Shown: in pieces, positions 48 to 5,357 of the stretch
How positions within the stretch are numbered: the first letter of the stretch is position 1
Layout of the letters: every line of letters starts with the position of its first letter
Made by a program: the position numbers and the translations under genes
NCBI GenBank assembly: GCA_028700115.1
Contig: JAQVTI010000028.1
Coordinates: 1-5,357, forward strand
Source of the DNA: Candidatus Iainarchaeum sp.
Lineage (GTDB): Archaea > Iainarchaeota > Iainarchaeia > Iainarchaeales > CSSED10-239
Reading direction: 5' to 3'
DNA: 5,357 nucleotides
Notes under the pieces: model-generated
Told to the model about the DNA's origin: nothing
The model's database searches: none
The model's input: only the letters and a program-made list of their open reading frames with translations

Positions 48-150
48 AAGGACTAGAGATTAAGATTAAGTGTTTTCTGTTGTTTTATTTTCTGTAGATG
101 AAACAAAAGGACTAGAGAAAGATTAAGAATTTTCTGTGGTTTTTTATTTT
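48..150. repeat. Two tandem degenerate copies (period 59 nt) of AAGGACTAGAGA..GATTAAG..TTTTCTGTKGTTTT..ATTTT
   Basis: AAGGACTAGAGA is exact at 48-59 and 107-118. It is followed in both copies by GATTAAG and TTTTCTGT(T/G)G plus a T-run (copy 1 48-91, copy 2 107-150), about 80% identical after two small indels. A weaker third copy of the T-rich part lies at 11-27. Confidence 0.7.
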
Positions 151-2142: not shown

Positions 2143-2199
2143 AAACAACCCCAAATTATAGTTCGCCTTCTGCAAAAATTTCAGATTTTACATATAATC

Positions 2200-2270
2200 T
2201 TTTGTAAAAACTCAACAATTTATCAAAAATCGCCAATTTTACAAAATTTGAGGGTTTTAAAATAGTTTTG
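2200..2270 (+). repeat. Intergenic direct repeat, copy A (71 nt)
   Basis: TTTTGTAAAAACTCAACAATTTATCAAAAATCGCCAATTTTACAAAATTTGAGGGTTTTAAAATAGTTTTG aligns to 3002-3073 with 6 substitutions and 1 indel (65/72). It contains a perfect 10-bp inverted repeat, TTTTGTAAAA (2200-2209) / TTTTACAAAA (2237-2246). Confidence 0.85.
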
Positions 2271-2353
2271 GAAGAATGATTATTTGGGGATTCTAAACTA
2301 TCTACTAATAATAATAAAAATATATATCAAAAAAACAAAAATGATTTAATAAT

Positions 2354-2995
2354 ATGACCTTAATAAATATTTTAATTTTAGTATTTAGTTTAATTCTGTC
2401 TATATCTTTTGTTCTAGGAATTATTTTTTTACTAATATTTTTATTTATATTATATCCGGTGCTTTTAATAAGATATAATATATTTATTAAAAAGTATATT
2501 AGTAATTATAACCCAAAAGACACCAATATAAATTCTGTTATAATAATTAATCATCTATTTAAAGACAAAAAACACAAAAATAGTATAGTGGATAAATGTA
2601 AATATATTGTTGCTTGGGGAGTTCCAGAACTATTATCTAAATTAAAAAAATACAAAAGAACAATCGCCATATATGAGAATATTTCTAGTAAAACCTTTGA
2701 ACAAATAATGGATAATAAATATATAACAGAAGTTTACATTTTTAGTCATGGTCAAAGATTTGGTGTTGGATTATCAGATAAATTCTATAGGTATAAAAAT
2801 CTATTAAAAATAACCCCCAAAATTAAAAAGAATATAATCTGTCAGTTACATTGTGGTGGGCGGCGAAAGATGAAATCAACAGATATAAGTTTGGAATCAT
2901 TTGCAAAAAAATGTAAAATACACAATAGAGATGTGCTTCTTTTTGAAAATTGTTTTTGGATTTTATTTAAATTTGACAAATTTTATAATAAATAA
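2354..2995 (+). CDS. N-terminally membrane-anchored protein with a caspase/CHAT-like (clan CD) His-Cys dyad layout; function unproven
   Basis: 213-aa ORF. Residues ~3-38 are continuously hydrophobic. The remainder alternates strand and helix: SVIIINHLF, YIVAWG, TIAIYEN, EVYIFSHGQRFGVGLSD (His132, nt 2747-2749) and KNIICQLHCGG (Cys167, nt 2852-2854). Compare the caspase motifs IIINNxNF / SHG / QACxG. Only ~45 aa follow the Cys. Confidence 0.55.
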   Translation: MTLINILILVFSLILSISFVLGIIFLLIFLFILYPVLLIRYNIFIKKYISNYNPKDTNINSVIIINHLFKDKKHKNSIVDKCKYIVAWGVPELLSKLKKYKRTIAIYENISSKTFEQIMDNKYITEVYIFSHGQRFGVGLSDKFYRYKNLLKITPKIKKNIICQLHCGGRRKMKSTDISLESFAKKCKIHNRDVLLFENCFWILFKFDKFYNK

Positions 2996-3001
2996 GCTAG
3001 T

Positions 3002-3073
3002 TTTTGTAAAAACTCAACTTTTTCTCAAAAATCGTCAATTTCACAAAATTTGAGAGGTTTTAAAATTGTTTTG
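3002..3073 (+). repeat. Intergenic direct repeat, copy B (72 nt)
   Basis: TTTTGTAAAAACTCAACTTTTTCTCAAAAATCGTCAATTTCACAAAATTTGAGAGGTTTTAAAATTGTTTTG starts 7 nt after the ORF3 stop and ends 35 nt before the mrr ATG at 3108. Confidence 0.85.
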
Positions 3074-3107
3074 TTGCAGTTATAATATATAATAAAATGT
3101 GATTAAT

Positions 3108-4013
3108 ATGATTCCAGACTTTCAAGAATTAATGCTACCGCTACTTAAATTATTAAGTGATAAAAAAGAACACAATTTCTTAGATTTAATAAATATATTA
3201 AGTGATCAATATAAACTTACAGAAGAAGAAAAAAGTGCAAAGACAAGTGCTGGATTTACAATAATTGATAATAGAGTTGGTTGGGCAAAAACTTATTTAA
3301 AAAAAGCGAAATTATTAGAATATACTAAAAGAGGGTATTCTCAAATTACTGATAGAGGATTAGAAGTACTTTCTAAAAATCTTACGAAAATAGATGTTAA
3401 ATTTTTAGAACAATATGAAGAATTTAAAGAATTTAGATATATAAAAAATACAGATCAACCTCTTTCAACTACAAACATAGCAATCAATGATTCATCTTGC
3501 CAAAGTAAAACTCCTATTGAATTAATGGAAGATGGTTATAATTCAATTAATGCAAATCTAAAGCAAGAGCTATTAGATAAACTAAGAGAATATCCACCTG
3601 CTTTCTTTGAAAAAACAATATTAAAGTTATTAGAAAAAATGGGTTATGGTAAAGGAGAAGTTACTGGTAAATCAGGAGATGGAGGAGTTGATGGTATTAT
3701 TTACCAAGATAAACTAAAACTAGAAAAAATATATTTACAAGCAAAACGTTTTGCAGAAAACAATCCAGTAACTGCACACATGGTTAGAGATTTTGTTGGA
3801 GCATTAGAAGTAAATGGAGTAAATAAAGGAGTTTTCATAACAACTTCTAAATTCCCAAGAGATTCTTTAAGTAACATAAAAAGTCAAAAATCAATAAAAC
3901 TAATAGACGGCTATGAACTAGCAGACTTGATGATAGAGCACAATCTAGGAGTATCTATTGAAAATACATTTGAAATCAAGAAAATAGATTTAGACTTCTT
4001 TGATGAAGAATAA
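3108..4013 (+). CDS. mrr: Mrr-family type IV (modification-dependent) restriction endonuclease: N-terminal winged-helix (Mrr_N-like) plus C-terminal PD-(D/E)xK Mrr_cat domain
   Basis: The track ORF begins at GTG 3099. ATG 3108 (MIPDFQELMLPLLKLL, a typical Mrr N-terminus) has TGTGAT 4 nt upstream. The C-terminal FFEKTILKLLEKMGYG..TGKSGDGGVDGIIYQDKLKLEKIYLQAKRF...VRDFVGAL...KGVFITTSKF...IKLIDGYELADLMIEHNLGV is the canonical Mrr catalytic core (nt ~3678-3746). Confidence 0.9.
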   Translation: MIPDFQELMLPLLKLLSDKKEHNFLDLINILSDQYKLTEEEKSAKTSAGFTIIDNRVGWAKTYLKKAKLLEYTKRGYSQITDRGLEVLSKNLTKIDVKFLEQYEEFKEFRYIKNTDQPLSTTNIAINDSSCQSKTPIELMEDGYNSINANLKQELLDKLREYPPAFFEKTILKLLEKMGYGKGEVTGKSGDGGVDGIIYQDKLKLEKIYLQAKRFAENNPVTAHMVRDFVGALEVNGVNKGVFITTSKFPRDSLSNIKSQKSIKLIDGYELADLMIEHNLGVSIENTFEIKKIDLDFFDEE

Positions 4014-4015
4014 AT

Positions 4016-4525
4016 TTAGAATAAATCTTCCACTTTTAGATTTTTTCTGATTCTTTTAAATTCTGCATCTCCAGCATACATAAATATCAAAAGGAATATA
4101 CTAAGAACTACTAATACAAAAAATAAATAAGTAAGAATAGTAATCCACATATCTAATTTTAAAGTTGTATTAATAAATTCAAATGCTAATGTAAATATAG
4201 GACTTAAAGCTAATGAAATATAAAGAAAAATTAAGGTTTTCTTTTTCAACCAATTATTTTCTGCAGAATAATTACCATATAAATATGCTTTTATTTCTAA
4301 TAATCTTAGATTTAGTTTATTCTTTAGATCATCATCTATATTTCTTAAAGTTATAAAATATTCAAACTGAAATTTATACAATTCTACAATTGTGGGATAA
4401 TCTTTAACATTTGAAAGATTTAATCTAAACATATCATATTTCTGAATAGCCGGCAAAATTTCAGTAGTTAATTTTTCAGAATCATACTTTTGCATTTTTT
4501 CTAAATCATTAAAATTTACATTCAT
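4016..4525 (-). CDS. Hypothetical protein: ~95-aa helical N-terminal domain plus two C-terminal TM helices
   Basis: 169-aa ORF with ATG 4525-4523 and TGTGAT 3 nt upstream. Hydrophobic segments are TLIFLYISLALSPIFTLAFEFI and MWITILTYLFFVLVVLSIFLLIFMY. Its stop (4016-4018) lies 2 nt from the mrr stop (4011-4013). Confidence 0.7.
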   Translation of the reverse strand: MNVNFNDLEKMQKYDSEKLTTEILPAIQKYDMFRLNLSNVKDYPTIVELYKFQFEYFITLRNIDDDLKNKLNLRLLEIKAYLYGNYSAENNWLKKKTLIFLYISLALSPIFTLAFEFINTTLKLDMWITILTYLFFVLVVLSIFLLIFMYAGDAEFKRIRKNLKVEDLF

Positions 4526-4818
4526 TCAATCACAATTTCCTTTTTCCCATCTTTAATCCCATTAAAGATAAGATTATACTCATTTTCACTTAATTCAACC
4601 AAATTTTGATATTTATTATCTTCTTTAAGTAAAGTAAACTTATCTTGTAATTGTTTAGCAATTAATCCTTTTAGAGATAATAATACTGGTTTTAATTTAA
4701 CTTGATAAGGATATTTCTTTTTCCAATTATTAAATTCATCATTAACTAGTTTTTCTGCTTCAAATATTCCAAAGACTATCCCTTGTCCAAAATAAACAAC
4801 AATATCTCCTATAGATAT
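4522..4818 (-). pseudogene. Start-less 98-codon open frame, probably the 3' remnant of a gene (tentatively PUA-like/EVE-like beta-barrel protein)
   Basis: Manual translation: ISIGDIVVYFGQGIVFGIFEAEKLVNDEFNNWKKKYPYQVKLKPVLLSLKGLIAKQLQDKFTLLKEDNKYQNLVELSENEYNLIFNGIKDGKKEIVIE, stop TGA at 4524-4522. An in-frame TAA (4821-4819) lies immediately upstream. There is no in-frame ATG, and the only in-frame GTG/TTG codons are a few to ~30 codons before the stop. No N-terminal continuation exists in any frame further upstream. ATGA overlap with the next gene. Confidence 0.45.
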
Positions 4819-4846
4819 TTACTTCTTTTCCTATAAACTTTAAATA

Positions 4847-4968
4847 AAACCTTTAAAGTGGCTATTTTAAACTCTTTTCTTATACAATCATTTACTTTAA
4901 GAAAAAGATTATTTTTAAATCATCTGTGGTTAAATTTTTAATATTATAAGCCACTTTAAACCTTTAAG
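4847..4968. repeat. 12-bp perfect inverted repeat with an 85-nt spacer, inside ORF-free DNA
   Basis: TTTAAAGTGGCT (4852-4863) and AGCCACTTTAAA (4949-4960) are exact reverse complements. AACCTTTAA(A)G also occurs as a direct repeat at 4848-4858 and 4959-4968. Confidence 0.6.
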
Positions 4969-5241
4969 ATATTTTAAACTATAATCTAGAATGAATTTAA
5001 TTTTTTAGACATAAAATGACACAAAAGATATTAATAGACTTTAATTTTTATGTTATTCCTTTTATTATAATTATTAAATACCTAAACTTCTAATCTTAGA
5101 TACACTACTTTACAAAGATAGCATATTTTACCCACTTGTAAAAAATCTTTTTTTTAGTTATTGTTTAAAATTAGTTATTTTATACTTAATATAGACTTAT
5201 AAACACTTTTCAGTAAATAAAGACAGAAGCAAAAAGAAAGT

Positions 5242-5314
5242 AAGACTTGGAAGAAATATTCTGTGGTTTAAAGAAAATGATTAAGATGAAAAGAAAGATG
5301 TTTTTGTTGTTTTT
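5242..5314. repeat. Copies related to the 5'-end repeat family
   Basis: AAGACTTGGAAGAAATATTCTGTGGTTT (5242-5269) resembles AAGGACTAGAGA..AATTTTCTGTGGTTT (107-142), and the 11-mer TTCTGTGGTTT is exact at 132-142 and 5259-5269. GATTAAGAT...GTTTTTGTTGTTTTT (5279-5314) resembles GATTAAGATTAAGTGTTTTCTGTTGTTTT (64-87). Confidence 0.5.
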
Positions 5315-5357
5315 AAATTAAATTATTAATCTGCTCTTTTATTTTAATGATGGTATC

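Follow-up and report, generated by a model that had tools for sequence, protein, structure and literature searches.

R, a family of intergenic repeats with promoter-like features upstream of mrr and other genes in Candidatus Iainarchaeum

The window analysed here, an entire contig (C37, 5,357 nt) of the Candidatus Iainarchaeum sp. assembly GCA_028700115.1 (G000 below; 965 kb in 47 contigs, 22% G+C, completeness 89%), contains two direct repeats, copies A and B, that bracket the gene of a 213-aa membrane-anchored protein (ORF3, 2354..2995, plus strand), with copy B lying directly upstream of the type IV restriction endonuclease gene mrr (3108..4013, plus strand; Pfam Mrr_N 1e-26, Mrr_cat 3e-31). 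The two repeats are members of a family, R, of ~90-nt non-coding intergenic modules. We favour, with a confidence a little above even, the reading that R is a portable regulatory unit, a promoter-bearing module whose copies also serve as recombination homology. R would open with an oligo-T run, the usual archaeal termination signal, which would terminate the upstream gene, and would continue with a conserved ~45-nt upstream element, likely a protein-binding region, composed of (C/G)TCAA boxes 10-11 bp apart and TCACAAAAT. It would close with a core promoter made up of GAGAGG, resembling the transcription factor B (TFB) recognition element (BRE), a TTT(T)AAAA or TTTTTATT box and a conserved TTGTTTTGTTGCA ahead of the predicted start. 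Copy B would then be the native promoter region of mrr, and copy A a paralogous copy whose promoter part was once that of another gene, similar in type to the one on contig C41, and which now stands 91 nt from ORF3. Since the same module is found at the 5' end of many unrelated defence genes, its copies could offer tracts of homology at which gene modules are joined, swapped or deleted by recombination, and recombination from one R copy to another would yield both the bracketed ORF3 and the mosaic island to which the window belongs.

The repeat pair and its family

Positions 2200-2270 and 3002-3073 align on the same strand with 90.3% identity (65 of 72 columns, six mismatches and one gap), the starts of the two copies being offset by 802 nt. 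Copy A begins 57 nt past the ORF2 stop (2142) and ends 83 nt ahead of the ORF3 ATG (2354), while copy B begins 6 nt past the final base of the ORF3 stop (2995), its end lying 34-35 nt ahead of the mrr start codon (ATG, 3108-3110, plus strand). The pair is the top self-match of the window at 96 bits, compared with a mean of 30.2 (SD 3.0, maximum 42.8) in 100 dinucleotide-preserving shuffles. The 10-bp inverted repeat TTTTGTAAAA (2200-2209) / TTTTACAAAA (2237-2246) is perfect in copy A and carries one mismatch in copy B (TTTCACAAAA), and both copies contain ACTCAA...TTGAG and GGTTTTAAAAT. A preliminary description of this DNA had reported the pair with the same identity, strand, spacing and motifs, and its distances to the genes are right within 1 nt. 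The similarity is a little longer than first described, the family model R1 matching 2199..2283 (copy A, plus strand, full 5' half, 67.3 bits) and 3001..3089 (copy B, plus strand, the region upstream of mrr, 75 bits).

Reading along the plus strand, copy B consists of a T-run (3001-3005), two CTCAA boxes (3013-3017 and 3024-3028), a GTCAA box (3034-3038), the TCACAAAAT box (3041-3049), an inverted TTGAG (3050), the purine-rich, BRE-like GAGAGG (3052-3057), the TATA-like TTTTAAAA (3058-3065) and a conserved TTGTTTTGTTGCAG (3066-3079). A Shine-Dalgarno-like GTGAT (3099-3103, plus strand) follows, and the same GTGAT-ATG layout is found upstream of mrr on the contigs L191 and L193. The consensus of a 19-copy alignment (A3) reads TTTTTTGTAAAa.CTCAActTTTTcTCaAAAAtt.tCAAttTCACAAAaTTt.agaG.TTTaaAtTtgTtTTgttgca.

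A count of the copies and of what they flank, which the preliminary description had called for, gives seven strong copies and one weak copy in G000, all on short contigs rich in defence genes. Beyond the window a profile search of the genome located C28:3350-3433, C15:1301-1380, C41:1270-1352, C16:164-217 and the weak C28:2523-2606, and found none on the large contigs. Four of the strong copies and the weak one lie on a single 22.7-kb scaffold (C37-C28-C15), all in the same orientation. R is also present in a genome of another genus of the same family (G013), with 98% identity to copy B over 62 nt, and in one of another family of the same order (G106); six genomes of the same genus, including a single-contig one, yielded no copy. 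Strong R occurs in only three of the 151 searched genomes of the order, these family counts being drawn from incomplete assemblies, with kin that are not independent samples. Further copies lie on the metagenome contigs L128 (three copies), L092 (two), L082 (two), L071 and L047, and at the mrr-linked loci L191, L193/194 and L195/196. Pattern scans returned 24 chance matches in A+T-rich bacteria and one true match among genome contigs, and chance matches only among viral contigs, while BLAST against phage and plasmid collections gave chance-level partial matches or none. The genes that R precedes encode Mrr, RE_MjaI, ORF3, HIT-family and DUF2321-Ymh proteins, together with several that are unannotated.

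Promoter-like features and the genes behind R

The motif that recurs upstream of the tRNA genes of G000 is TTTTTAAA or TTTTAAAA. The box of R occurs as TTTTAAAA, TTTAAAAT or TTTTTATT, the 3' part of copy B reading GAGAGG-TTTTAAAA, and so fits the tRNA-upstream TATA box of the same genome. Among 635 long open reading frames the box lies most often 20-25 nt before the ATG (22 cases at 22 nt, the background being ~5), which fits leaderless transcripts, and the distribution of distances has a genome-wide shoulder at 37-43 nt, which fits the clear Shine-Dalgarno signal seen as an enrichment of G at -12 to -7 before start codons throughout the genome. Start contexts in G000 are accordingly bimodal, with either a TATA-like box 20-25 nt upstream, of the leaderless type, or a G-rich Shine-Dalgarno sequence at -12 to -7.

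Nine R copies stand at these genome-preferred spacings. Four have a spacer of 22-23 nt and precede unrelated genes, namely a 231-aa gene (the weak C28 copy), the gene of a 282-aa membrane protein (the C41 copy), an ORF3 homologue (L128b) and a HIT-family gene (L082a). The other five have spacers of 38-58 nt, of which four carry a Shine-Dalgarno sequence of the GTGA(T) type; they comprise copy B, with 42 nt and GTGAT before mrr, and the copies L092a, G013:C18, L128c and G106. L128c is followed by an RE_MjaI endonuclease gene (E 3e-64) beside an N6/N4 methylase, and the genes after the G106 and G013:C18 copies, putative restriction enzymes, adjoin Dam-like and C5 methylases. The sequence ahead of the box is likewise suggestive: the preferred contacts of TFB are G at -6 and A at -3 relative to the TATA box (PMC11065993), and both are provided by the GAGAGG of copy B. 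GAGAGG directly followed by TTTTAAAA is shared by copy B, island copy 3, L128a, L128c and L193, and copy A (GAGGG) and the TGAGG subtype have the preferred bases in part. Transcription would start downstream of the R box, and for copy B the box position predicts a start at ~3087-3091, about 18-20 nt before the mrr ATG, in agreement with the ~15-20 nt put forward in the preliminary description.

Copy B is most likely the native upstream or promoter region of mrr. The closest Mrr homologues, with 94% (L191, a 117-kb contig), 89% (L193/194) and 65% (L195/196) identity, all have R immediately before mrr and lack ORF3. Even upstream of the 65%-identity Mrr the boxes are intact (TTTTTGTAAA, TCACAAAAT, GAGG, TTTAAAAT and TGTTTTGTTGCA). 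Comparison of the window with L128 shows 88% identity for the right-hand R copy and 66-70% for the ORF3 coding sequence. That R outconserves this coding sequence and keeps its boxes upstream of so diverged an Mrr points to constraint on R or to homogenisation among its copies.

Copy A presents a different case. Its box TTTTAAAA (2255-2262, plus strand) lies 91 nt from the ORF3 ATG, and its 3' part is of the 'TAGTTTTGG' subtype, which is common to the C41 copy; together with the next ~70 nt, this 3' part is 75% identical to the C41 copy and the beginning of the gene behind it, in an alignment that reaches 2337. ORF3 has an AT-rich, TATA-like stretch of its own, AAAAATATATATC (2316..2328, plus strand), 25-27 nt before the ATG, and this is a candidate proximal promoter since its spacing fits the genome-wide 20-25 nt peak. 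Given the distance, the C41-like 3' part and the A+T-rich stretch of ORF3, copy A is probably a relic promoter and is unlikely to be the proximal promoter of ORF3. The proposal of a duplicated promoter module is therefore supported for copy B, where a tRNA-like TATA box, the 42-nt spacer with GTGAT and the retention of R upstream of mrr in three other sources all speak for it, and is improbable for copy A at its 91 nt from ORF3. The one ORF3 homologue found (57% aa identity, tblastx) is on L128, again bracketed by two R copies; none was found in 196 genomes of the order, and a further search gave only the same gene in a near-identical assembly.

The best-conserved columns of the 5' half are the (C/G)TCAA boxes, at 3013, 3024 and 3034 in copy B and hence spaced 11 and 10 bp. 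This half resembles a phased protein-binding array, and binding by a protein is likely. An ORF6N protein is encoded beside R variants in G013 and L082 and is absent from G000.

Several observations weigh against R as a regulatory unit. In DNA of 78% A+T TTTTAAAA is a common sequence, and a box by itself therefore counts for little. Copies A and 3 sit 83-91 nt from the next start (83 nt for island copy 3), and island copy 4, L128a and the truncated copies face no gene or convergent genes. The high identity of R between genera could stem from recent transfer and not from selection, and no regulator co-occurs with R. In addition, the membership of the short contigs in G000 rests on binning, their G+C being 24-26% compared with ~22% for the large contigs.

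Recombination between copies and alternative readings

Individual R copies are mosaics. The nearest relatives of copy B differ between its halves, being the G013 copy (100% identity) and L082b (98%) for the 5' half and island copy 3 (94%) for the 3' half, and the halves of L128b are discordant too. Conservation of the junctions is one-sided: the ORF3-R junction is common to the window and L128 and the next gene differs (mrr and RE_MjaI respectively), and the R-mrr junction is common to the window, L191 and L193 and the sequence before R differs. Five truncated copies (island copy 4, C16, G013:C14, L082b and L071) keep the 5' half and diverge at different columns, and no co-oriented gene lies downstream of any of them. 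On its 5' side R has a sharp boundary, always at the T-run, the 3' ends being ragged. No mobility gene was found near any R copy. We infer that homologous recombination between R copies, rather than a site-specific process, is the simplest mechanism.

A second element, D2, has variable cargo next to it. Two tandem units of this purine-rich element (…GGACTAGAGAAAGATTAAG…TTCTGTGGTTTTTT) lie at 57..145 (plus strand) of the window, and a third, more diverged D2-like unit lies at 5230..5330 (plus strand), at the C37/C28 junction. In G013 and G106 D2 directly adjoins the 5' T-run of R, whereas 2 kb of genes in the window and a different 0.9 kb in L071 stand between the two. On L082 (reverse strand, repeat-oriented 1120-1180) D2 corresponds to the final codons of a HIT-family gene (…EELEKIKV*) and the T-rich tail of that gene. 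D2 with TTCTGTGGTT is a recurrent partner of R (window, L082, L162 and L140), and only the HIT-gene remnant is left in G013 and G106; the HIT gene of G000 (C23) is 39% identical to the L082 protein. A G-rich motif, TTTTCGGGGGGGTAGCTGTCCAGTGGAA, also stands ahead of R or R variants at L193:1-45 and on L082, L172, L140 (three copies) and L128 (two copies), and is absent from G000; its GTCCAGTGGAA core presumably recalls archaeal origin-recognition boxes. On L140 (reverse strand, 11143-11549 against 13009-13375) G013 has a G+C-richer, decayed duplicate (79%) of a 238-aa gene, and this lies just downstream of a truncated R copy.

A more far-reaching form of the portable-unit reading, which we put forward tentatively and regard as rather unlikely, would make R the joint of an integrase-independent gene-capture system of DPANN archaea. 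Defence genes would pass from lineage to lineage in modules sharing a 5' terminator-promoter unit, and recombination inside this unit would dock each module by homology and supply it with a promoter on arrival, giving an integron-like array in which promoters take the place of attC sites and the upstream boxes tie the docked genes to one host regulator.

It is unlikely that R is instead a passive recombination scar or long target duplication, devoid of regulatory role and recently duplicated, with ORF3 and one repeat inserted as a unit. Direct repeats do flank a single gene, D2 and R are adjacent in G013 and G106 and have 2 kb of cargo between them in the window, and restriction-modification genes lying between direct repeats of >30 bp and lacking mobility genes are documented in bacteria (PMC2853133). 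L191 and L193 moreover show one R before mrr and no ORF3, but their upstream flank is not ORF2. A scar of this kind would not be expected to be multi-copy, and R has at least eight copies in the genome and more elsewhere, so that it is not a unique target sequence; nor does such a scar sit well with R persisting, its boxes intact, ahead of mrr genes whose products are as little as 65% identical, being better conserved than the adjoining coding DNA and holding its box at genome-preferred promoter spacings in nine copies. The suggestion in the preliminary description that the repeats are cassette boundaries or scars survives in a general sense, in that R-ORF3-R recurs on L128, R-mrr occurs in the absence of ORF3, and the two halves of R have a mosaic make-up.

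A small non-autonomous mobile element, similar to a miniature inverted-repeat transposable element, or the end of a larger one, might happen to carry a promoter. Such an origin would suit the sporadic occurrence of R (three of 151 genomes of the order and none of the six of the same genus) and the 98-100% identity of its 5' half across genera. It is nonetheless quite improbable, as the ends of R show no terminal inverted repeats, the flanks no target-site duplication beyond the T-run and the vicinity no transposase, while the large contigs lack copies, the 5' end is fixed and the 3' ends are ragged, and phage and plasmid collections gave at best the chance-level matches noted above.

The remaining readings are weaker still. 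The preliminary description had named the winged helix-turn-helix (wHTH) protein encoded by ORF1 (417-1184) as a possible regulator, in which case R would be its operator array and ORF3 and mrr would answer to one local regulator. The 10-11 bp spacing of the (C/G)TCAA boxes does resemble that of phased binding sites and ORF1 belongs to the same gene row, but none of 196 genomes of the order, the R-bearing G013 and G106 included, has a homologue of ORF1, and a different repeat, AAATATGTTAC, occupies the upstream region of ORF1 itself, so that this assignment is highly doubtful.

Equally hard to credit is a role for R as a functional transcript, either a structured non-coding RNA or a leader with a mini-ORF. 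At 3066-3092 the window reads GAGG, 8-9 nt, then TTG TTT TGT TGC, a possible ribosome-binding site and mini-ORF (Met-Phe-Cys-Cys). GAGG-N8-TTGTTTTGTTGC is kept in ~10 copies, and in L128b the mini-ORF stop overlaps the start of the ORF3 homologue as ATGA. However, the length and sequence of the mini-ORF vary past four codons, and if the box is a TATA box the GAGG...TTG motif lies upstream of the predicted start. Nor is there covariation or a consensus fold: Rfam gave no match at E<=1 in the window and none at gathering score in seven related loci, RNAalifold predicted no pairs on 14 R copies, and the named inverted repeats pair in 74.6% of cells compared with 73.9% in shuffles. The pair 9-44 is broken in 13 of the 14 copies, so the perfect hairpin is peculiar to copy A. 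A structured RNA or hairpin was rejected on these grounds. The minus-strand frame (…NFVKLTIFEKKLSFYKK) is open in most R copies and its third-position bias is weak (0.19 against 0.12-0.14), which also discounts R as a coding remnant, since one ancestral 22-codon stretch read in six frames would have an open frame in about half of all cases. The template or variable repeat of a diversity-generating retroelement was set aside as well, the repeats being non-coding and the annotated genes of these contigs including no reverse transcriptase, for which no dedicated search was made.

Least credible of all is an integron-type attC site, or the site of another dedicated site-specific recombinase, with the island as a cassette array. 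The co-orientation of the island copies, the sharp 5' boundary at the T-run and the fit of ACTCAAC to RYYYAAC, on which the preliminary description had based the idea, are outweighed by the lack of GTTRRRY in any R copy, of a conserved hairpin and of IntI, and by the presence of genes in both directions between copies. The single Phage_integrase-family gene (tyrosine recombinase) of G000 lies elsewhere, on contig C40, with archaeal XerA as its best match, and no serine recombinase was found in this 89% complete genome.

Known parallels and the defence island

The closest functional parallel to R is the regulatory sequence of SIRV2-type archaeal viruses, in which a shared BRE/TATA core precedes unrelated early and anti-defence genes (PMC11065993). 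Both comprise tens of nucleotides around such a core, stand before unrelated genes of one genetic element and belong to the sphere of defence and counter-defence, and R too is an upstream sequence better conserved than the genes preceded (88% against 66-70% for ORF3). The viral sequence, however, is situated at virus genome termini, whereas R is found in defence islands on contigs binned to cellular genomes, in chromosomal contexts in G013 and L191; SIRV2 has Aca8, while no regulator was found associated with R; and R is longer (~90 nt), is shared across genera and has internal recombination breakpoints. The closest structural parallel is that of repeat-flanked restriction-modification genes (PMC2853133), which likewise have direct repeats of >30 bp, no transposase or integrase, and a single copy in related genomes. 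Those repeats are bacterial, unique targets duplicated on insertion, in contrast to R, which is multi-copy, has a promoter-like part and travels with the downstream gene. R thus differs from both in combining multiple copies, cellular defence islands, cross-genus occurrence and internal breakpoints.

Integron attC arrays resemble R as co-oriented ~60-120 nt repeats between gene modules in a variable region, but R lacks the R'/R'' core pair, the conserved hairpin and IntI, and has genes in both orientations; attC sites lie at the 3' end of promoterless cassettes, R at the 5' end of genes and with a predicted promoter. Other short multi-copy intergenic repeats, such as the repetitive extragenic palindromic and bacterial interspersed mosaic elements (REP/BIME), the enterobacterial repetitive intergenic consensus (ERIC) and the Correia elements, can provide promoters or terminators and be used as substrates for recombination. 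These are spread genome-wide and are mostly palindromic or bounded by inverted repeats, whereas R is archaeal, non-palindromic and, in G000, confined to short contigs with defence genes.

Little is known of the expression and exchange of defence genes in small DPANN genomes. If R is a portable regulatory unit, its upstream boxes would offer a handle on a transcription factor controlling restriction and defence genes in an uncultured lineage, and R itself would be a concrete route for rebuilding defence islands in the absence of integrases or transposases. Genes behind R could also be flagged as candidate defence genes, much as anti-defence genes of archaeal viruses were found via their shared regulatory sequence. 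If R is only a scar, it would be an ordinary case of repeat-flanked restriction genes.

The host is archaeal by its small subunit rRNA (1365 bits with the archaeal model, 1078 with the bacterial one). The ends of C37, C28 and C15 overlap in that order by exactly 127 nt, and the joined scaffold, a defence island, measures 22,665 bp; L180, an independent assembly of a near-identical strain (99.98% identity), spans the C37/C28 junction. The island encodes Mrr, the DUF2321-Ymh protein, a nucleotide cyclase, HNH and SNase-like genes, an AAA_21 ATPase, an SLFN/AlbA_2 protein and a 598-aa protein (C28 662-2458, minus strand) with a C-terminal RNase HII-family domain (Pfam 6e-29). From motifs rather than Pfam, we read a 1,140-aa protein as methylase-like and a 1,066-aa protein as PLD-helicase-like. 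On C28, a 312-aa adenylate/guanylate-cyclase-domain protein (4326-5264, minus strand) is encoded beside the protein with a DUF2321 zinc ribbon and Hypoth_Ymh (3501-4259, plus strand), and the two may form a nucleotide-signalling defence pair.

Overlaps of 127 nt also join C1-C44-C18, while that of C34/C46 is 59 nt. The break between C28 and C15 falls inside the AAA_21 gene, which suggests strain variation at that point. A second version of the C15 region, diverged to 64-78% nt identity, is found on C16, with the order AAA_21, R, small gene, methylase and with R at the same relative position as in the C15 region, and the metagenome contig L047 is 99% identical to C16. Within the window, positions 4575-4813, which overlap a start-less frame upstream of a 169-aa gene, have a 78% identical paralogue at C1 9253-9491.

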